A stretch of DNA of 32,000 bases from NCBI RefSeq assembly GCF_000619845.1, contig NZ_JHUX01000009.1, positions 60,001 to 92,000 of the forward strand, written 5' to 3'. Below the pieces are notes generated by a model. It was not told the origin of the DNA, did no database searches, and worked only from the letters and a program-made list of their open reading frames with translations. Of this stretch, positions 1-13,698 are shown one piece after another. Numbering within the stretch: position 1 is the stretch's first letter; every line of letters starts with the position of its first letter. The translations under genes were made by a program, and so were the position numbers. The DNA comes from Alkanindiges illinoisensis DSM 15370 (lineage in GTDB: Bacteria > Pseudomonadota > Gammaproteobacteria > Pseudomonadales > Moraxellaceae).

Positions 1-322
1 GAATTCAAGCCTGAAGGCCGGTGTAGAACATCTGGCACCGCAGCAATTTCCCAAAAAAATGACGAGATAAAGCAACCTAAGATCCGCACTAGATTTTCAT
101 TGAGCTTAATGTAAAGTTTTTCGTAGAGCGCGGTATTACTTTGATTTATTAGCAGCTTGGAAAATATTCTTTTTGTGATTAATAAAATTTCAATGCATTG
201 CTTCAAATTAGCGTTTCTCTTTAAGCATTGATCTAAGCTTGATTAATGATATTCATGCTTATTATTAATTAGGCTTAATACAAGTAGGCAGCCAGCATAC
301 TCTGGGGTAGGCAAAACCAGCG

Positions 323-985
323 CTATGGTTTTTTGGCTATCGTTTCAAGAGCGGTTTGATTGTCGCTTAGCCAAGAGGCTGTTATCTCACAACGAAATCT
401 CACCAGTTCTATTATTTTATGATAATCATCAGCTAATGCTCGATTAAAAATAGGTTCATGATGGGCAATTCGATTTCTCAAATATCGAATTTGATCAAGA
501 TACTGGTAAATCATTGTGCGTCGTTCTGTTATGGTTTTTGCTACATCCATATTGGGTAGTACGCTAGTGAGATAAGGAATCCATAGACGTTCATCATAAC
601 GTTGAGTAAACATTTTTTGCCAGAACACAAATTTAAGTTCCGGGATAACTTTCCCTGTAGCCTGAGTACTTCGTCGTGCATTCATCAGATCCCTGCGTGG
701 ACTGTACCCAATGCGCGGGTCGGGTAAGCTTCTTTCAAAAACTGTTGCCCAAGGCCACTGGGTTCCATAAACAGATTCTAAAGCAGCGGCAACAGCATTA
801 CGGATCACTACCTCACAAAGATGTAACGGCGTTAGTAACGCTCCGGACACTTGTGCATTCCATGCATAAAGGTGCAAAGCTGCCAGCTCATCAACATTTG
901 CTGTCCCAATGGCCGTTTCATAGGTTGCAATTCGCGCTGGAGAGATTGCTGTTTTTATGGCATTAATCATTGCTTGGTTTGACAT
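323..985 (-). CDS. Abi_2 (AbiD/AbiF-like) abortive-infection protein, HEPN-type RNase predicted
   Basis: 220-aa ORF. The C-terminal segment YLRNRIAHHEPIF carries the Rx4H HEPN motif in the form typical of Abi_2-family proteins. The N-terminal helix EVVIRNAVAAAL also fits the family. No Shine-Dalgarno is visible upstream of the ATG. Confidence 0.7.
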   Translation of the reverse strand: MSNQAMINAIKTAISPARIATYETAIGTANVDELAALHLYAWNAQVSGALLTPLHLCEVVIRNAVAAALESVYGTQWPWATVFERSLPDPRIGYSPRRDLMNARRSTQATGKVIPELKFVFWQKMFTQRYDERLWIPYLTSVLPNMDVAKTITERRTMIYQYLDQIRYLRNRIAHHEPIFNRALADDYHKIIELVRFRCEITASWLSDNQTALETIAKKP

Positions 986-1006
986 GTGTAGTATTAACTG
1001 TATAAT
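979..1006 (+). promoter_or_regulatory. Near-consensus sigma70 promoter (TTGACA-N16-TATAAT) pointing away from the Abi gene
   Basis: TTGACA at 979-984 and TATAAT at 1001-1006, read directly. The -35 hexamer overlaps the Abi start codon (983-985 on the - strand). Confidence 0.5.
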
Positions 1007-1012
1007 AAAGGC

Positions 1013-1096
1013 ACTAGCTATAGGACTTGCGGGCGAAAGCCTCCCCCTGTAGACGTACGATAGTATATGAAAAAACCCGCTTTTTGCGGGTTTTTT
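1013..1096 (+). ncRNA. Candidate ~85-nt small RNA or terminated leader
   Basis: Predicted start is about 7 nt after the -10 element. No ORF is present. There is an internal GGC-GAAA-GCC tetraloop hairpin (1032-1041), and the transcript ends at an intrinsic terminator (1076-1096). I did not recognise it as a known RNA family. Confidence 0.35.
1071..1096. terminator. Bidirectional rho-independent terminator
   Basis: AAAAA-CCCGC-TTTTT-GCGGG-TTTTTT: a 5-bp GC stem (1076-1080/1086-1090) flanked by an A-run and a T-run. Confidence 0.7.
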
Positions 1097-1250
1097 CTTG
1101 TCGTTTTAACATGAAATTTATTCTAAAAAATAGATACATAGCCATGTGCGTTTGGTACGAAAAGTGTGGCTAATAATCAAATCGCATAAGACATTATGGG
1201 TTAAACTCGTATGATCCCAACCTAATTCATCGTGATTTGATCTTGATGAT

Positions 1251-2471
1251 ATGACAATAATGCCGTCAAGCCCGCTGATTAAGCAATTAAAGCAGATGAC
1301 TCATCCCATACTGAGTTCATTTCGTTTGTTTCTTCGGGTGAAAAGTATTGCAGCCTCGTCTTGTGGTCATACCTTTGCCTATGGCATTGACCTCAATACT
1401 GATGAAATCATTAAGGTCCGGCTCAATACTGTCGATGAAGGCGTTGACGATTTAATGCAGGCCAGACAGATGAGCCGGGAACTGGCTCTAAAGCAGGTTA
1501 AATCCCAGTACACAGGCGCCAATAGTCGGGACAGTTTGCAGACCAAACGCGATAAATATCAGGCTGTTTATTTGTCCTTTGACCGTTGCATTGAAATTCC
1601 ATCTACAGAATTTGGTATTAAGGCCTATCGCAGCCACTGGGCAGAACTTATGAGTGCTGATCCGAGCGCTGAAGTGATATTTGGCTTAGGCCATGTGCAT
1701 CGTCAACCGAGTGATCCTGTACTACAAAATCAAAAGCCTGGGGCGGCATGGACTGAAATTGTCGAAGCAATTGAGATACTGACACCACAACAGCAAAGTT
1801 CTAATCATCAAAGTCTCATAGCTGCCTTAAGCCCGACGGATGAGCAGCATCGACCCCGGGAAGGCTATGCGGTATTACAGGTGTATGAGCAGGATCAGCT
1901 GCAAAGTGAAATAAAGATTTTTCAGCATCGAAAGGCGGTAACGCATCCTGATCCTCAAGGACAAGCGCTCTCCGTTTTACAGGCGGTGTCAGCAGAAGAA
2001 ACGCTAGAGTATTATTTTAATGGCCTTGTGACCAAGACTAATACGGAATTTGATATCTTACGTGACATTGCCCGGATCATCTTGAATATTTGTTGTGGCC
2101 ATCCGGTTAGTGCTTCACAATTTTCAAGTCAAGCCACTGATTATCTAGCGTCCTTACGCCAGCTTTATCGCCGTTTTAAAGACCAGCAATTGACGGTGCG
2201 CTTAATTGCGGTTCGTACCATCTTATTTGGCCCCTACAAGATTCGCAGCCTGCTGGCCAGTAATCCCCAAAAAGGCCCTTTAAAGCTGTATCAAAATTAC
2301 CAGTTTTTACCCACCATTCTGGTGATTCAGCGGCATGCCGATTCAGGCCGGGCTTTTGGGGTTTTCGCCTTGCCTGCTGAACAGGCTTCATCATTTAAAC
2401 CCTGCACCTTGTCAGCATTGCCCTTAGATATGGCACAATACAACTATCGGCATCTGATCGCAGAGGAGTAG
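1251..2471 (+). CDS. Hypothetical protein, 406 aa, no family recognised
   Basis: Long ORF and first gene of a co-directional trio. No Walker, nuclease or HTH motif recognised. Start codon uncertain because there is no clear RBS. Confidence 0.55.
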   Translation: MTIMPSSPLIKQLKQMTHPILSSFRLFLRVKSIAASSCGHTFAYGIDLNTDEIIKVRLNTVDEGVDDLMQARQMSRELALKQVKSQYTGANSRDSLQTKRDKYQAVYLSFDRCIEIPSTEFGIKAYRSHWAELMSADPSAEVIFGLGHVHRQPSDPVLQNQKPGAAWTEIVEAIEILTPQQQSSNHQSLIAALSPTDEQHRPREGYAVLQVYEQDQLQSEIKIFQHRKAVTHPDPQGQALSVLQAVSAEETLEYYFNGLVTKTNTEFDILRDIARIILNICCGHPVSASQFSSQATDYLASLRQLYRRFKDQQLTVRLIAVRTILFGPYKIRSLLASNPQKGPLKLYQNYQFLPTILVIQRHADSGRAFGVFALPAEQASSFKPCTLSALPLDMAQYNYRHLIAEE

Positions 2472-2478
2472 ATTCGCC

Positions 2479-2724
2479 ATGACAGATCAGCCAGAAAACG
2501 AGAAAAACAAACGTACTGAAGCCCAGCGCAATGCTGAGTTACGGCATGAACAGCACCGCATTCATTTTAAGATTAGTGCCAACTTAAAAACCAATCCTGC
2601 CTACGCCCGTAAATTTCAGCGATATCAGGAGGCTAATTTATTGGGAACATTATTGAAGGAAGCGCTGCTCAATGCGCCAGAGAACCCTGAAGACTTTGTG
2701 CCCTTAAAATCCAAAAAAACTTAA
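2479..2724 (+). CDS. Small basic protein, possibly ribbon-helix-helix DNA binding
   Basis: 81-aa ORF starting 7 nt after the previous stop. It has a Lys/Arg/Glu-rich N-terminus, then a RIHFKIS strand-like segment followed by two helix-like segments. The RHH call is inferred from this pattern only. Confidence 0.5.
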   Translation: MTDQPENEKNKRTEAQRNAELRHEQHRIHFKISANLKTNPAYARKFQRYQEANLLGTLLKEALLNAPENPEDFVPLKSKKT

Positions 2725-2798
2725 GAAAATTTTTCTATATCAGCTTATAAATACACAACCAGATGTAGGAAGTAGAACAACAATGAAGAGACAGAGTC

Positions 2799-3854
2799 AT
2801 GAATATATTAAATGAACTTGATGCATTAACATCATTACAACTAGAAATTATGATTTACAGGGCAATTGAAGAGGCGATCAGTACAGGTCAGAATGAACCT
2901 AGTATTGTGGCAGAGCTCACCAAAAAAATTCCTGAGTCTTTAAAATCACTAACTAAAATTGGAAAATACACATTAACTACAGGAGGAATTTTTGTTCATC
3001 AGACGCCAAAAGTTAAATTTAATGGAATGCAAAAGACAAGCATTGAAATTGGTGATCTGCTTTTATTAAATACGATTATTGATCAGCGTGGGAATCGATC
3101 CAGGCGGGCAATGCTATTTCAGGCAAAGATGGTTGATGCATTACCTGCGACCCCTGACAATGGCGATCAGCATGATCTTTATGAAAAGTGGCCCTTGTAT
3201 ACTTATGTACATGGAGCGCTACAAAATCAGCATCGCTATATTACAGCGCCCGATCTACATTTGGCTGCAAAGTATCTATTATTAAATAAAAATAATGCCG
3301 GGATACCTTTTAAAAGGCATTATTTGAAGCAAGCACTGGCCAATGCAAGTGCATTAACAGCGAGTCCAACTCGTCCCTTAAATCATTATCAGTGCTTTGC
3401 AGAGGAGCTTCGGCAGTTTATTTTAGGAAATGCCGGGAAGATTTTTTTGGCCATGGATGATCAGGATTATAAGAATTACTCTGATTTACATAATATAGGA
3501 ATATCTTATCCTCCTTCTGTGAAAAACGTACTACCTTTTCTTTTCGGATTTTATGATTGGGAGGGCTGGAGCTTGATGGTTAATGATCTTATCCGCTCTA
3601 CCGCTCGTAAAGCGACGAGATTAATGAATGTACAGCCATCTTCACAAGCTACAGGAGTAAGAGGCGTCAACGTTGAAAATATAATGATGTTTACATCTTC
3701 TATAAGTTTAATTTCGCAATTGGCTCCTCCTTCAGATCAAGTACCAACTGATAAGAATGATCCTAACGAAGAAGATGGAGGTATCAGTATTATTGAGTTT
3801 ATTTTACAAGAAGTCGAAGGTACTGAAAATAATAAATATTTAGAAGAGATTTAA
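2799..3854 (+). CDS. Hypothetical protein with an N-terminal PD-(D/E)xK-like nuclease signature
   Basis: 351-aa ORF. An acidic helix (LQLEIMIYRAIEEAI) is followed by IEIGD86LLLL and RAMLFQ108AK110M, matching D-x(n)-(E/Q)-x-K spacing. The remainder was not recognised. The C-terminal tail is acidic. Confidence 0.55.
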   Translation: MNILNELDALTSLQLEIMIYRAIEEAISTGQNEPSIVAELTKKIPESLKSLTKIGKYTLTTGGIFVHQTPKVKFNGMQKTSIEIGDLLLLNTIIDQRGNRSRRAMLFQAKMVDALPATPDNGDQHDLYEKWPLYTYVHGALQNQHRYITAPDLHLAAKYLLLNKNNAGIPFKRHYLKQALANASALTASPTRPLNHYQCFAEELRQFILGNAGKIFLAMDDQDYKNYSDLHNIGISYPPSVKNVLPFLFGFYDWEGWSLMVNDLIRSTARKATRLMNVQPSSQATGVRGVNVENIMMFTSSISLISQLAPPSDQVPTDKNDPNEEDGGISIIEFILQEVEGTENNKYLEEI

Positions 3855-3863
3855 GTGTAAGTA

Positions 3864-4502
3864 TTAAAGCGTCTGATTAAACTTTAATAAAAGATAGAGA
3901 TTATTATAAGTCGGATAGGTTGCTGTGAGAGATGGAAAATAAAGTTTTTTAACTTCCTTGATCGCAGGCTGCAAAATAAACTGCTTGAGATTATCCACTC
4001 GGTGATAAGAGCTTAAATGTTCAATCTGAAACATGGCTAAAATTTCTGGAAGATTAAACTGCTGCATCTTTGCTCCAGGCTCAATGTATAAATATAAAAT
4101 CTTGGCCATTGGTGTATTTAAACGAGCCAGATTTTCAATCAGCTTACTATCAAAGGCCTGCTGAATTGCAGTCAGGTGCTCCTGTAGTACGCTACTTAAT
4201 CCAATACGCAACGTTAACTGATCTAGGCTGAGCTGATGATGGCTGAAGCAAAAAAATTTAATAAAGTGGGGATGCAGACGACTAGCACTAAAAAATAGCG
4301 GTTTGGTGGCCAGTGCATCAATCACTGGCCAGAGCTGATAAGTCGCCGCAAAGTGGCTATTGAGGTGATCCAGTAATTCAGCTGTAGAGAGAATAATCTG
4401 TGGTTGCAAGGCCTGCCGATGATTAACCAGCTCATGAATCAGTGCCTGCTCAGGCAGAGATAACAGAGAGAGTGCCAGGCAGATTTCATGCTCAATCTTC
4501 AT
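3864..4502 (-). CDS. Rep_3-like (RepB/pi-type) winged-helix protein, short form
   Basis: 212 aa. The N-terminal LSLPEQALIHELV resembles the Rep_3 WH1 start. The C-terminal SSYHRVDNLKQFILQPAIKEV resembles the conserved Rep_3 WH2 segment (Y-R-x-DNLK-x-x-VI-x-x-A-x-K-x-I) of Acinetobacter Rep proteins as I recall them. Confidence 0.5.
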   Translation of the reverse strand: MKIEHEICLALSLLSLPEQALIHELVNHRQALQPQIILSTAELLDHLNSHFAATYQLWPVIDALATKPLFFSASRLHPHFIKFFCFSHHQLSLDQLTLRIGLSSVLQEHLTAIQQAFDSKLIENLARLNTPMAKILYLYIEPGAKMQQFNLPEILAMFQIEHLSSYHRVDNLKQFILQPAIKEVKKLYFPSLTATYPTYNNLYLLLKFNQTL

Positions 4503-4597
4503 GGTTGATCAATCATCAAAGGGGAGGGCAGTTCGAATCAGCTTAGCATACAATAAAGGCAATCCTGTTTGAACTATCCCAACACTGGCTCATTCAT

Positions 4598-4963
4598 ATG
4601 CTTGAAAATCCCTTGATGCAAGAACAGATCCGCAAACGGTTTTCCAAACTTCGACCGTTTGAGCAGCAGTTGCTTAGAGTGATTATTCAAAAAGCCATTA
4701 CTCAAAATCAGCCGGCGGCTTTCTGGGTAGACCTATCCTTCACCACGGTACACCAGCTGATGGGATCACATTATCCTAAAGCACTGGCCGAGCAACAGAT
4801 TGTAAAATCTTTAGAGGCCTTATTATTTGCCCGGGGTTATTTTCATGCCCCAGATCACGCCAGCCTGGAATATCAATTTATCGGCGGCTATAAGATAAAC
4901 CCAGATTTCTCTATCCGGGTTTATCTTAATTCACTGATTCAACCTTATCTGGTGCAATTATAG
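4598..4963 (+). CDS. Rep_3 WH1-domain-only protein (truncated rep or stand-alone winged helix)
   Basis: 121 aa. LRPFEQQLLRVII..., ...ALLFARGYF... and ...IRVYLNSLIQPYLVQL parallel the Rep_3 N-terminal domain. The ORF stops where the WH1-WH2 linker would begin. Confidence 0.45.
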   Translation: MLENPLMQEQIRKRFSKLRPFEQQLLRVIIQKAITQNQPAAFWVDLSFTTVHQLMGSHYPKALAEQQIVKSLEALLFARGYFHAPDHASLEYQFIGGYKINPDFSIRVYLNSLIQPYLVQL

Positions 4964-4983
4964 AGACTAATAATTACTTCTCT

Positions 4984-5182
4984 CCTAAATATATGGGAAC
5001 ACCATAGGATAGATAAGATTTAGCAACTCACTTCCATACTATATCTCTCAATTAACCCGCTTTATTTATCGTCAACGATATTAATCAATCGTTATCGATA
5101 AAGCAGGGCAGAAAGCTAATGTTTGGATAGGCCTTAAGAAGGATGATAGTAGATACTTTTATGGTGTTCCCATATATTTAGG
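4984..5182. repeat. 199-bp element with perfect 23-bp terminal inverted repeats and a concentric internal palindrome (MITE-like)
   Basis: CCTAAATATATGGGAACACCATA at 4984-5006 is the exact reverse complement of 5160-5182. An imperfect palindrome at 5059-5104 (core AACGAT/ATCGTT) is centred within about 1 bp of the outer repeat centre. Flanks are TACTTCTCT and TACTGCTTT (7/9 identical). Confidence 0.6.
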
Positions 5183-6581
5183 TACTGCTTTGCCCATCAA
5201 GCCACCTTAATACCTTTTCATCATTCTGTGCTAATTGCCTAATAGATTGATGAAATGATTTCACCTTAAAATTGGTCTGGTAAAAACCTTCATTCACTGC
5301 CGCTGCTAAAAAATATGGGTTCATGAGTTCAGGATACTGTACGGTGAGCTGAGCTAATAGATTCATTTGATAGGCTTTAACTATAAGCTTTGCCATTTCA
5401 TTTTTAGGAATAGTGGCCAGATTACCCTGGGCTTTTTCAAGTCTTGCAAAAATATCAGTCTTTGTGGTTTGCCGGTAAAGTTCCATATCCTCAATCTTGC
5501 GTATCATTTGCATTTTTGCAGGCATGGTCTGCTTTATGGCTAATAAGGTAGCGACTTCTATTCGCCAACGGCTACTTTCAAGTGATTCGCTAAACAAACC
5601 TTTCCAAAGACGCTTTTTTGCAGAATCAGAGAGTAAGGGAACTAGTTCGGTTAAAATAGACTTGGCAGTTTGACTGGGTGTCATAAAAAACTGGCTTGCT
5701 GGTGAGCGTATTAATTCATAAATGATTCTAACAGTGTGCTGATAAAGCTCACGCTGGTTGTAGTTTCCCTGCATGATTTTTGCCTGTTGCAGCAACTGCG
5801 CTATATCACTGATTACGATGGGGATAGGGTCAGTAAAGACGGTTGCATAGGCCTGATAAAGCCTAGTGAGTGATTTATATTGTTCAAGCAGGGCCAAAAG
5901 CCTGGCCTGTACATCATGGAAATTAACATAATGGGGCTGACAAGAAGCACAGATTCTGGGTTTTCTGCTGGGACTCGCATCTAGTACCTGCCAGTAATGC
6001 AATGTGGTATCTGGCTGTTCATTGAGTAAGGTATCAGCAGATAATTCCACCCAGCGGTTAATACCTGATTTTTTGACAGAATCTACCCGATGTGAGTGAT
6101 ATACCTCAAACATCAAGAAAGGATTGGTTTTCTCGTATTCCTCAAACACAGCCACATCACCACGAAAGCTCGTATCAGGATAGTTATATTCACTAATGGC
6201 CTGATTGACACTGGCTGGCAAGGTATAGATAAACTGATGTTTCCCACAAAAATGGCAAGGGAAGTGAAGGCAAATCTGGTGATGTTCAGTAATGGCCAGA
6301 ACAATGCGCTGTTTACCCAGAATATGTTGCAATGACTCATTACTACAATTTCTATGTTCGACATGCCTAAAGTGATGTACACGTTCAGTGCCAGCAACCA
6401 CAATGAGTGGATGGCCACAATCCGGGTCAGGACAATAATAATGATGCTGTTGGCTTTCTGCTCGTCGTGCAACAGCCTGAGTAATTGATATGATTTTGCC
6501 CTGCTGATCCAATGCCGATCTAAACCAGCTGCTGATAGAAGTATTGGTTAGTGCTGTTATTGATTGATCCCTGTCCATCAT
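5178..6581 (-). CDS. CoiA-like Zn-ribbon / PD-(D/E)xK nuclease domain protein with a long helical C-terminal extension
   Basis: 467 aa. CPDPDCGHP...VHHFRH...C.NESLQH..GK, a second CHFCGK pair, then RGDVAVF...FLMFEVYHSH. This has the same order and spacing as the CoiA family (C-x-x-C...HFAH...ES..H...D...E-V-Q-x-S). About 270 aa of unassigned helical sequence follow. Confidence 0.6.
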   Translation of the reverse strand: MMDRDQSITALTNTSISSWFRSALDQQGKIISITQAVARRAESQQHHYYCPDPDCGHPLIVVAGTERVHHFRHVEHRNCSNESLQHILGKQRIVLAITEHHQICLHFPCHFCGKHQFIYTLPASVNQAISEYNYPDTSFRGDVAVFEEYEKTNPFLMFEVYHSHRVDSVKKSGINRWVELSADTLLNEQPDTTLHYWQVLDASPSRKPRICASCQPHYVNFHDVQARLLALLEQYKSLTRLYQAYATVFTDPIPIVISDIAQLLQQAKIMQGNYNQRELYQHTVRIIYELIRSPASQFFMTPSQTAKSILTELVPLLSDSAKKRLWKGLFSESLESSRWRIEVATLLAIKQTMPAKMQMIRKIEDMELYRQTTKTDIFARLEKAQGNLATIPKNEMAKLIVKAYQMNLLAQLTVQYPELMNPYFLAAAVNEGFYQTNFKVKSFHQSIRQLAQNDEKVLRWLDGQSST

Positions 6582-11694: not shown

Positions 11695-13698
11695 TTAAGT
11701 CGTGGGGTCACCTTCTACTTCAATATGCATCATCAAACCACCGCCACCATCATGTTCAACATTATTGTTGGTAGTATGATGCAGAATATGGCAATGGATC
11801 ATCCATTTACCTGGTTTAAGTGCTGTCCAGATGACATCATAGCGCTGACCAGGACCTACATTAATGGTATCCGCTTTGAAACGGGCAGAGGGAGGAAGGG
11901 TCTCGCCATCACGTGCCACCACCACAAACGGGCCACCGTGGATGTGCATAGGATGGATAAAACCACTACTAGAGCCAATAAAGCGGACTTTAAGGGTTTC
12001 ACCTACTTTCATTTTGATGGTATCTGTTGAGGGATAAGCACGACCATTGATAGTAAAGTAATTGGGCATGCCTCCTTCCATTGGCATAGCTGGGTAAGTT
12101 AAACCATCACGCACCAGCCACTCCTGGAGTTGCAGGGTATACTCATGGTCTGCTGGAATTGTATCAGCCGGATTTGCCGGGTCAATGATTAATGCGCCAT
12201 ATAATCCTAAGGTTTGCTGCCGGTCGACATGGTCGTGCGAGTGATAAAAATAAGTGCCAGACTGTACCGCAGTAAACTCATAGCGATAAATATCCCCGTT
12301 CTTGATGGGTTCCTGGGTGACGTGAGCCGCACCATCCATCACGTTGGGCAGGACCAAGCCATGCCAGTGTACAGTGGTGGTTTCGGGCAGGCGATTTGTC
12401 ACATTAATCCGGACACGGTCGCCCTGACGAAAGCGTAGGGTTGGTCCTGGCACCTGGCCATTAAAGGCATAAGCATTTACAAATGTTTTAGGAAGAATCT
12501 GCCAGCGGATGACCGAAGTATCCAGATCAAATACCTTAACGCCATTCTCCAGACGCGGCTCCAGAATATGCGCACCGCGCTGACTTAAATCGTATTTTGC
12601 CGACACATCCCGCGGATCGACCGCTGCCATATCCCGCATGGCTTCAGCTGAGGTTTCCTGCGTCATTATCATGCCAGGTGGCATGATAATCCCACCGACT
12701 TCTTCTGCTGATAGCCGTAAATTAAAGAATGCTGCTGGTAAAGTCATACCAGCGGCCAGAAGAAAAAGGCTAAAAAATGTAACGGCAGTAAGCTGCGCCC
12801 GAGTGACCGAAGGTGCGCCATGACCTGTATGATGCTCTCCGTGTTGTCCAGCATGTTGACTGTTAGTATGTGAGTGCGCTGGCGCCTTACCATCCTTAGC
12901 TTGGGAGCTAGTATGATCACTAGGTTGCTCTGCTAAATCATGGTTCATTTGCGCCATATCACCATGTCCATGGCTTCCCTGATGCGAAGCATGAGATGAA
13001 GAATGGTTATGTTCTCCGCTATCTGAAGAATCTGGACGAACCGTCATAAGGCCATGCTTCATGCCGCGTGAAACCATCCAGACATTCACTGGATAGGCCA
13101 GCGCGAAACCAGCGATGATACCAATGGACATAACCACCCAGAACAGTGGCTCTCCAGGCCACATGGCACGCATGTCGCGCCCCATCATTAAATAAACCAT
13201 GACTGGTGCCATACCGGCCATCATGCAGTTCATAGAAATTAGCTCTGGGAGGAAGCTACGCTTTACGTTTTCAAGATAACTGCCGCCCATCATTTTGCGC
13301 ATAAACAGCGCCTGAAAAATAAGTAGGCCGAACAAGAAACCGGCAGTATACTCAACGATCAGGTCGACCCACATCGATAGGCCAAGCATTGCGGTGATAA
13401 CTGCTGCGACGATAATTCCCGTAGCATCACCTGCAACACAATGCACGGTGGAGCCAACACCCTGTTTCCATAATGGTTTTACAAATTCTTCATGGGTGCC
13501 AGGTGCAGGTTCTTTGTCTGCCATCACATATAACAGCAAGCCAATTGGACCCATGTATAAGGTCACCAGCACAAAACCCCATTTCATTACGGCAGGCTCA
13601 GGATTGCCTCTGAATTGATCCCAGGCAACATAGGCTGCTGAAAGCACGGCGATAACTAGCCAGGCGTAGACAAAAATATCAATGGGTTGAATTAACAT
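11695..13698 (-). CDS. DUF4396 membrane domain fused to a two-domain multicopper oxidase
   Basis: 667 aa. The N-terminal ~215 aa are polytopic and contain GSTVHCVAGDATGII (DUF4396-like HC-x-AG-D). A His-rich linker follows (GEHNHSSSHASHQGSHGHGD...HGEHHTGHG), then one TM segment, then ~330 aa with HWHG, YHSHDH, HPMHIHG and HCHILHH copper-ligand motifs. Confidence 0.8.
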   Translation of the reverse strand: MLIQPIDIFVYAWLVIAVLSAAYVAWDQFRGNPEPAVMKWGFVLVTLYMGPIGLLLYVMADKEPAPGTHEEFVKPLWKQGVGSTVHCVAGDATGIIVAAVITAMLGLSMWVDLIVEYTAGFLFGLLIFQALFMRKMMGGSYLENVKRSFLPELISMNCMMAGMAPVMVYLMMGRDMRAMWPGEPLFWVVMSIGIIAGFALAYPVNVWMVSRGMKHGLMTVRPDSSDSGEHNHSSSHASHQGSHGHGDMAQMNHDLAEQPSDHTSSQAKDGKAPAHSHTNSQHAGQHGEHHTGHGAPSVTRAQLTAVTFFSLFLLAAGMTLPAAFFNLRLSAEEVGGIIMPPGMIMTQETSAEAMRDMAAVDPRDVSAKYDLSQRGAHILEPRLENGVKVFDLDTSVIRWQILPKTFVNAYAFNGQVPGPTLRFRQGDRVRINVTNRLPETTTVHWHGLVLPNVMDGAAHVTQEPIKNGDIYRYEFTAVQSGTYFYHSHDHVDRQQTLGLYGALIIDPANPADTIPADHEYTLQLQEWLVRDGLTYPAMPMEGGMPNYFTINGRAYPSTDTIKMKVGETLKVRFIGSSSGFIHPMHIHGGPFVVVARDGETLPPSARFKADTINVGPGQRYDVIWTALKPGKWMIHCHILHHTTNNNVEHDGGGGLMMHIEVEGDPTT

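Follow-up and report, generated by a model that had tools for sequence, protein, structure and literature searches.

Gene layout of the locus

The window analyzed in this work is a 32,000-nt stretch of Alkanindiges illinoisensis DSM 15370 DNA (contig NZ_JHUX01000009.1, positions 60,001 to 92,000). The subject of the analysis is a group of three adjacent open reading frames (ORFs), here called A, B and C, found near the start of the window beside a gene of abortive-infection type:

1251–2471, + strand: gene A, ORF of 406 aa (403 aa in some sources, from an ATG 9 nt downstream)
2479–2724, + strand: gene B, ORF of 81 aa
2799–3854, + strand: gene C, ORF of 351 aa
323–985, - strand: Abi_2/HEPN abortive-infection-type gene (abi), 220 aa, with Pfam and PADLOC matches

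The three ORFs are co-directional, with gaps of 7 nt between A and B and of 74 nt between B and C, and diverge from the minus-strand abi gene, as described in the first-pass annotation, which had been made from the sequence alone. All three are named "hypothetical protein" in the databases. That annotation recognised none of them as a named system, and library scans agree: when A, B and C are compared with Pfam, NCBIfam, PADLOC-DB v2 and PHROGs at E <= 1, only noise is obtained.

The tight co-directional spacing beside an Abi gene gave the locus the look of a system; comparative genomics resolves it into unrelated modules, a result that may serve as a caution. The reading preferred here, and considered probable, is that the locus consists of two independent units on an Alkanindiges plasmid backbone: a two-gene module, A-B, and a cargo gene, C, coding for a candidate nuclease. 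It is built on gene structure, family distributions, genomic contexts, motif invariance, module boundaries and base composition, from which folds, biochemical activities and roles in defence or establishment are predicted. No named system is present, and the two units are of familiar kinds: a defence candidate of the type embedded in restriction-modification (R-M) operons, and a plasmid backbone pair.

Two probable units at one locus

In two metagenomic relatives, L014 and L015, where A is 86% and 90% identical, respectively, A and B are kept with the same 7-nt spacing, and the third gene is not C: an HNH_2 fragment follows in L014, a Toprim ORF in L015. Homology to the window, as detected by blastn, covers A-B only, from 1275 to 2710 for L014 and from 1329 to 2728 for L015; it starts 24 and 78 nt into A, respectively, and ends 14 nt before and 4 nt after the stop codon of B. 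At third codon positions, A has a G+C content (GC3) of 0.445 and B one of 0.439; the values are 0.41–0.45 for two further genes described below (a Rep-like ORF and ORF121), 0.284 for C and 0.317 for abi, which is neighbouring defence cargo, outside the A-B pair. The contexts of the A and C families are entirely different and mutually exclusive: C relatives have neither A nor B nearby, either in the nine R-M contexts read (0/9) or at a remote locus, L031, while the distant relatives of A have a helicase as partner and are accompanied by neither B nor C. Because homology stops at the end of B, and third genes, GC3 and family contexts all differ, A-B and C are regarded as separate units.

The first-pass annotation had proposed one novel system, for defence or plasmid maintenance. 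In such a system, A would do the sensing or be a scaffold, B would be the regulator or the antitoxin, and C would supply the nuclease activity, being possibly swapped in relatives. Several observations favour such a system, and weigh against a division into two units. In this plasmid lineage the three genes form a stable set, since the A-B-C order is kept at 95% DNA identity in A. illinoisensis, and the exact B and C proteins are found on 62 and 51 contigs, respectively; overall, the three genes stay together in two Alkanindiges species and on tens of metagenome contigs. Because terminator prediction finds nothing between the three co-directional, closely spaced genes, they are probably co-transcribed, as far as the sequence indicates. 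The adjacent Abi gene, and the endonuclease type of the HNH_2 fragment, would fit as well.

The Toprim ORF of L015 points the other way. Members of its family occur on over 4,000 PLSDB plasmids, of which 90% are conjugative, and its best match is a TraC-type primase within an IncP-like tra region: by sequence, this third gene reads as an establishment gene, not as a defence effector, which weakens the idea of an A-B pair with swappable nuclease effectors. Co-occurrence of the three genes, checked across genomes, is absent beyond close relatives, and the A family is common in PLSDB, where B is missing and C is represented by one remote homologue only. When the break at the B stop codon, the GC3 of C and the separate family contexts are also counted, a dedicated three-gene system appears improbable, and two units are preferred to the original proposal.

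The C family

The C family comprises 23 clusters among 5.8 billion proteins, with identities of 30–41% by BLASTP and of 33–42% in the alignment. C relatives are scattered: they come from Idiomarina, Tannerella, Maridesulfovibrio and metagenomes. Residues E33, P34, F65, H67, E83, G85, D86, L88, Q108, K110, Q124, Y128, W131 and P132, among others, are invariant in the 23 sequences; D86, Q108 and K110 are the three residues to which the first-pass annotation had drawn attention, and are found at those positions.

A tblastn search of PLSDB with C gives one weak match only, a genuine remote homologue on closer comparison: a 393-aa ORF, unannotated in PLSDB, located on the megaplasmid of Paraburkholderia caribensis MBA4 (L031, 6920–8101). 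When aligned with C by hhalign, it scores a probability of 98.9%, with an E of 1e-17. It keeps E-P, F.H, D86, Q108.K110, Q124...Y128 and W131; among the invariant residues that align, only G85 differs, being Ala there. Since D86, Q108 and K110 are invariant in 23 sequences only 30–41% identical, and are retained in the remote homologue, their conservation, at the sequence level, is far beyond chance. The neighbours of this ORF are a phage-type tyrosine integrase, a KfrA_N protein, UvrD_C fragments and a protein-kinase fragment, without an R-M operon; the region resembles an integrated element or a decayed defence island. A phage origin of the A and C families was also considered, and was rejected because neither family was found in scans of viral contigs.

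An AlphaFold2 (AF2) model of C was obtained with a pLDDT of 81 and a pTM of 0.83. The predicted elements are helix 33–48, strands 57–64, 71–74, 87–94 and 100–111, helix 122–130 and strand 134–136. In the model, E33 is on the first helix, D86 immediately precedes strand 87–94, QxK ends the partner strand 100–111 and Q124-xxx-Y128 falls in helix 122–130. This order of motifs and elements fits the one of RecB-type PD-(D/E)xK nucleases, whose core is formed by helix, strands, helix and strand. C may be seen, from its motifs, as a candidate metal-dependent DNA nuclease of RecB-like, PD-(D/E)xK type. The (D/E/Q)xK signature is cited in the preprint by Payne et al. 2024 (10.1101/2024.01.29.577857).

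Beyond these elements, residues 272–320 are a disordered, acidic linker in which the stretch D.PP.VP is conserved, and the C terminus features a strand (330–338; conserved GGISIIEF(I/V)), predicted with high confidence, which packs onto the core in the model. Linker and strand, as modelled, could be a regulatory or docking element.

A number of comparisons count against the nuclease assignment. The Foldseek search of C against PDB is not significant (best E 0.33; NucC is found at E 0.68, with TM 0.13–0.17), and a sequence-profile search of PDB returns noise only. Alignment by hhalign with Mrr, and with the N-terminal nuclease domains of HsdR proteins from the same loci, gives probabilities below 1%. 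None of the 23 family members, individually searched against Pfam and PADLOC-DB v2.0.0 (including its PDC set), finds a match. Because Foldseek, the PDB profile search and hhalign all failed to confirm it, the assignment is an inference from motifs and not a demonstrated membership. Of the PD-(D/E)xK identification made in the first-pass annotation, motif and secondary structure order hold, while structural and profile comparisons do not back it.

Type I R-M operons carrying C relatives

In all of the nine contexts read, the C relative is part of a type I R-M operon, has the same orientation and commonly overlaps the flanking hsd genes by 1–4 bp; the commonest order is hsdM1-C-hsdM2-hsdS-hsdR. 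Two hsdM genes are present in 8 of the 9 operons (L005, L006, L009, L012, L013, L027, L028, L029), and an all-against-all comparison divides them into two lineages, with identities of 55–82% within M1, 54–93% within M2 and 41–51% between M1 and M2. For this two-hsdM architecture no description was found in the searchable literature, where searches for it met only subunit stoichiometry or unrelated paralogue naming. In L012 a 338-aa gene lies between hsdM1 and hsdM2; its comparison with the C profile by hhalign was negative.

Other defence-type genes are embedded in these operons (Hypoth_Ymh/HEPN, Fic, GmrSD_N, a DUF4062 ATPase), and Mrr and AAA_13 genes adjoin them. Small HTH_26 genes (59–75 aa) lie directly upstream of C-bearing R-M operons, before hsdM1, in L006, L007, L008 and L027; they recall the R-M-proximal repressors of RptR type (PMC12255303). 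Embedded genes are very often defence genes, and candidates picked by guilt-by-embedding are validated at a high rate; of those found within type I R-M systems, over half still lack an assignment, and these likely include rare systems (Payne et al., 10.1101/2024.01.29.577857).

The association with defence suggested by the first-pass annotation is thus found for one part of the locus: C relatives reside in type I R-M operons in 9 contexts out of 9, and an Abi gene is adjacent. A-B is plasmid-associated. The absence from the window of the usual hsd partners of C has to be set against its proposed role, as no hsd or other R-M genes are found anywhere in the 32 kb. Three window ORFs of 434, 496 and 1048 aa (22.6–28.6 kb) were considered as hsdS, hsdM and hsdR, and were rejected, as they are efflux genes of cusCBA type.

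The operons also lend themselves to another interpretation, in which C serves the two-methyltransferase type I R-M lineage as a dedicated subunit or controller, for example as an assembly or bridging factor for HsdM1 and HsdM2 or as a restriction-control protein; the orphan copy of the window would then bind the R-M complex of the host, possibly shielding the plasmid (anti-restriction by subunit mimicry). The tie to the two-hsdM lineage is near-exclusive, holding in all contexts but one, and in L006, L013, L027 and L028 the C gene separates hsdM1 from hsdM2, its codons overlapping or abutting those of its neighbours. The conserved C-terminal strand, past the disordered linker, could dock, and the orphan C is found on a plasmid, beside establishment-type genes. 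However, the complete set of catalytic-type residues (E, D, QxK, QxxxY) is invariant, suggesting an enzyme more than a scaffold; in L011 the C relative is found with a single, unrelated hsdM (30% identity), in L009, L029 and L012 it is not between the two hsdM genes, and the remote homologue of L031 has no R-M neighbours. A subunit or controller is considered rather unlikely, and C is retained as a nuclease candidate.

The A-B module

Homologues of A, near full-length and about 28% identical, are detected by tblastn on 104 PLSDB plasmids: 89 are from Acinetobacter, the others from Xanthomonas, Yersinia, Pseudomonas, Serratia, Bordetella and Aeromonas. These are large plasmids, among them conjugative ones from clinical Acinetobacter baumannii and those of plant-pathogen Xanthomonas; the family is always annotated as hypothetical. 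The alignment extends over the full length, with R57, L58, T60, E63, F110, D111, R127, H129, W130, F326 and G327 invariant. A profile search with A finds at least 6 proteins, and a metagenome scan two short fragments only.

In 7 of the 8 loci inspected, an ORF of more than 1,900 aa starts 14–157 nt downstream of the A homologue. It carries AAA_34 and Helicase_C_4 domains, which identify a Strawberry-notch-type SWI2/SNF2 helicase, and the loci read place the pair on plasmids of Acinetobacter, Yersinia, Xanthomonas and Acerihabitans, hence of at least four genera. Iyer et al. 2017 (PMC5512222) treat helicases of this type in their discussion of polyvalent proteins from conjugative elements. Replication modules abut A homologues: RepA in L003 (Xanthomonas), Rep_3 in L020 (Acerihabitans) and Rep_3 with iterons in L021 (an Alkanindiges paralogue). 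In L021, the region 3523–4935 contains a bona fide Rep_3 gene (Rep3_N, E 5e-37), then about five copies of an iteron of about 20 bp, GTAAnCAAGnTAnATGTAGG, at 4461–4935; they make up an oriV, some 0.8 kb upstream of the A paralogue.

The AF2 model of A, built from 7 sequences, has a pLDDT of 75.7 and a pTM of 0.74; it is beta-rich, with repeated b1-b3/helix/b4-b5 units. Foldseek against PDB yields no significant match; its hits, weak but of a common theme, comprise the anticodon-binding oligonucleotide-binding (OB) domain of LysRS (probability up to 0.97), the D. radiodurans SSB-ssDNA structure (3udg, E 0.087), an RPA filament (8oej, E 0.18) and a telomerase OB subunit. Weak matches in BFVD are baculovirus LEF-3 (E 0.014) and a phage single-stranded DNA-binding protein (SSB; E 0.016). 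The family is plasmid-borne, is found beside rep or oriV modules, and usually lies upstream of the giant Strawberry-notch helicase; for these reasons, and on the basis of the model, A may be described, with modest confidence, as a multi-OB protein, made of two or three OB-fold-like modules, binding nucleic acids, probably single-stranded DNA (ssDNA), and taking part in plasmid replication or establishment.

Some results weaken this description: the OB/SSB similarities have E values of just 0.01–0.3, with poor global TM scores, no internal repeat is seen when the putative domains are compared by hhalign, and a sequence-profile search of PDB with A found nothing. Neither Pfam nor NCBIfam reports a match of A to an SSB family.

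B is much more restricted. When 1.84 billion representatives are searched exhaustively by phmmer, six B clusters only are obtained, sharing the pattern HRIHFKISAN...NP.YA.KF.RY...LL...NAP.NP.DY. The protein is basic at its N-terminus, and its gene directly follows A in all close relatives (L014, L015, L017). No B-like gene is found in PLSDB by tblastn with B and two divergent relatives, and the ORF after the A homologue of L001 is unrelated to B; B is therefore a lineage-restricted partner of A. In one family member, P0033 from A. hydrocarboniclasticus, the B domain is present twice in tandem, an arrangement compatible with a unit working as a dimer, as ribbon-helix-helix (RHH) domains do. That B is an RHH-like DNA binder or regulator is a guess, for which the sequence pattern, with HRIHFKIS ahead of a helix-helix stretch, is the only computational support; when four other members and a close B orthologue are compared with Pfam at E <= 10, no RHH family appears. 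This, too, tells against the roles proposed here for the module.

The A. hydrocarboniclasticus H1 assembly (L018, L019, L021) breaks within gene A. A further copy of A, a paralogue with 86% DNA identity, is found in the same genome, as are three or more proteins of the B family, one of them the tandem-domain P0033; several A-B modules thus coexist in one genome.

The neighbourhood of A could also be taken to indicate that A-B is itself a replication-initiation, partition or toxin-antitoxin module, where, for example, A would be a novel initiator of plasmids lacking a recognisable rep gene, and B its RHH autoregulator. A is found beside rep/oriV modules in four lineages, the large Acinetobacter plasmids with A homologues have no PLSDB replicon type, the Rep-like ORF of the window is weak and has no iterons, and the size of B is typical of RHH regulators. 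Yet Xanthomonas, Acerihabitans and L021 carry a bona fide RepA or Rep_3 besides A; winged-helix, NTPase and HTH signals are absent from A in Pfam and NCBIfam, its structural matches being OB-like; and the several A-B paralogues of A. hydrocarboniclasticus fit an accessory function better than an incompatibility-determining one. There is little probability, on balance, that A-B is a module of this kind, and an accessory, ssDNA-related role is preferred for A.

Proposed roles of the two units

According to the two-unit reading, A-B would be a conserved plasmid module, in which A handles ssDNA during replication or establishment, and B is its small DNA-binding partner or autoregulator. C would be separately acquired cargo, an orphan of a rare accessory family that usually rides in type I R-M operons. 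Its putative active site would bring together E33 (first core helix), D86 (start of a strand), Q108-x-K110 (partner strand of the hairpin) and Q124-xxx-Y128 (next helix). C may act as a defence effector, and could make up, together with the Abi/HEPN gene, a small defence islet of low GC3 flanking A-B. As to its control, possible analogies are a PrrC-like latency on the R-M complex, an autonomous, Mrr-like type IV action, or a structural role in a two-HsdM complex.

A bolder combination of these elements may be put forward, although it is quite unlikely. C could be the signature fifth component of an undescribed two-methyltransferase type I R-M subtype, a variant of the nuclease-like fold with no solved relative, whose orphan copy would use an affinity for the host R-M complex to arm the plasmid with a portable effector or to disarm restriction at plasmid entry, and A could represent a new multi-OB ssDNA-binding family partnering giant Strawberry-notch helicases.

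Two leads are the most valuable: the C family with the two-hsdM lineage that it marks, and the A family, which on over 100 plasmids is the conserved partner of giant Strawberry-notch helicases. Should C prove to be an active effector of nuclease type, a rare family, unmodelled in PADLOC, Pfam and NCBIfam, joins the R-M-embedded defences; the family also draws notice to type I R-M operons of a conserved lineage, in which two distinct HsdM genes are present. An ssDNA-handling role for A, if assigned, would fill an annotation gap in the backbone of these large plasmids.

Neighbouring genes and plasmid block

The other features found around the three genes are the following:

about 1013–1105, + strand: candidate small RNA of about 90 nt (element 979–1108), from promoter and terminator prediction, between abi and A
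3864–4502, - strand: weak Rep_3-like ORF, 212 aa, convergent with C
4598–4963, + strand: ORF121, last gene of the shared backbone block (window 1–5525)

The abi product matches Abi_2 (E 1.5e-5) and HEPN_RiboL-PSP (E 4e-4) in Pfam, and PD-T4-5 (E 3.2e-17) and AbiD (E 8e-7) in PADLOC. The Rep_3-like ORF matches Rep3_C (E 1.7e-4; 22.2 bits, for a cut-off of 21.1), while Rep3_N stays below cut-off (E 0.053). It has no homologue in PLSDB, and iterons are absent from window 1–6000.

A promoter/terminator element upstream of A, reported in the first-pass annotation, is indeed present. The promoter is a sigma70 consensus, TTGACA-16-TATAAT, at 979–1006, matched at 12 positions out of 12. The terminator, about 60 nt past the promoter, is a strong, T-flanked hairpin with a 12-bp stem at 1069–1097, bidirectional in appearance. 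The candidate RNA that they define folds with an energy of -36.5 kcal/mol (z = -4.8) and is antisense to the likely abi leader. In Rfam, a search of window 1–6000 gives no hit above threshold, the best sub-threshold one being a type I antitoxin RNA (E 0.47). A Shine-Dalgarno sequence, GAGGAG, is located 10 nt before the ATG of B.

The nearest relatives of the locus are from Alkanindiges (Moraxellaceae); no match to window 1000–4600 is found in PLSDB by megablast. Contigs of A. hydrocarboniclasticus H1 match at 99.5–99.9%. The A. illinoisensis contig L017 (1699–7228) is 95.3% identical to window 1–5525, then diverges into arsenic-resistance cargo, so that a block of about 5.5 kb, running from abi through A, B, C and the Rep-like ORF to ORF121, is common to plasmids with different cargo. 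The rest of the window contains umuDC, cop/cus copper-resistance operons, a two-component system, an insertion sequence (IS) and an adenosine deaminase gene. Within the copper-resistance cargo, a 667-aa protein encoded at 11695–13698 (- strand) joins a DUF4396 membrane domain to a multicopper oxidase.

The end of the block, at 5525, falls within a 467-aa ORF (5178–6581, - strand) with a CoiA_N domain (N-terminal domain of competence protein CoiA, zinc-finger-like), the remainder of the protein being unassigned. L017 keeps just a 118-aa C-terminal remnant of this ORF (L017 6881–7237).

Nucleotide differences between the window and L017 are unevenly distributed: none in abi (0/663) and B (0/246), 8/1056 in C, 90/1221 in A (55 synonymous and 22 non-synonymous codons), 57/639 in the Rep-like ORF and 23/366 in ORF121. 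This mosaic divergence inside the block suggests recent patches of recombination, possibly with co-resident paralogues.

Comparison with known systems

For C, the closest parallels are found among genes embedded in R-M operons and among nucleases. PrrC, an anticodon nuclease located in the EcoprrI operon, is, like the C relatives in 9 of the 9 contexts, a single accessory gene on the same strand, between type I hsd genes; an embedded effector of PrrC type is a backup for when R-M is inhibited (10.1101/2024.01.29.577857). C, however, has no ABC-ATPase, no anticodon-nuclease domain and no PADLOC PrrC match, its motifs are of DNA-nuclease type, and the copy in the window is detached from any R-M system. 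With the defence candidates identified by guilt-by-embedding (PADLOC PDC/HEC; Payne et al. 2024) the C family shares the genomic signature, but it matches no model of PADLOC-DB v2.0.0.

The acidic residue on the first helix, D, QxK, QxxxY and the predicted order of the elements are alike in C and in the nuclease domains of RecB, Cas4 and HsdR and the D-QxK variants Mrr and NERD. C differs from PD-(D/E)xK nucleases in that neither profile comparison nor Foldseek detects a similarity to any nuclease of solved structure, to Mrr or to the N-domains of HsdR from the loci of its relatives; it has about 190 further residues of unassigned fold, and neither a helicase nor an Fe-S module.

A resembles SSB, RPA and baculovirus LEF-3, in that its model is beta-rich, with OB-like units, and has OB/SSB structures as best, though weak, structural neighbours, and it is plasmid-encoded beside replication, helicase and primase genes. 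Its similarity to SSBs is below significance, a conserved acidic tip at the C terminus was not established, and it would be a monomeric, multi-domain protein of 406 aa, while SSBs are tetramer formers of about 170 aa. Finally, distant A homologues pair with a polyvalent helicase of Strawberry-notch type; the A lineage of the window has lost this helicase or never had it, and A is followed instead by B.

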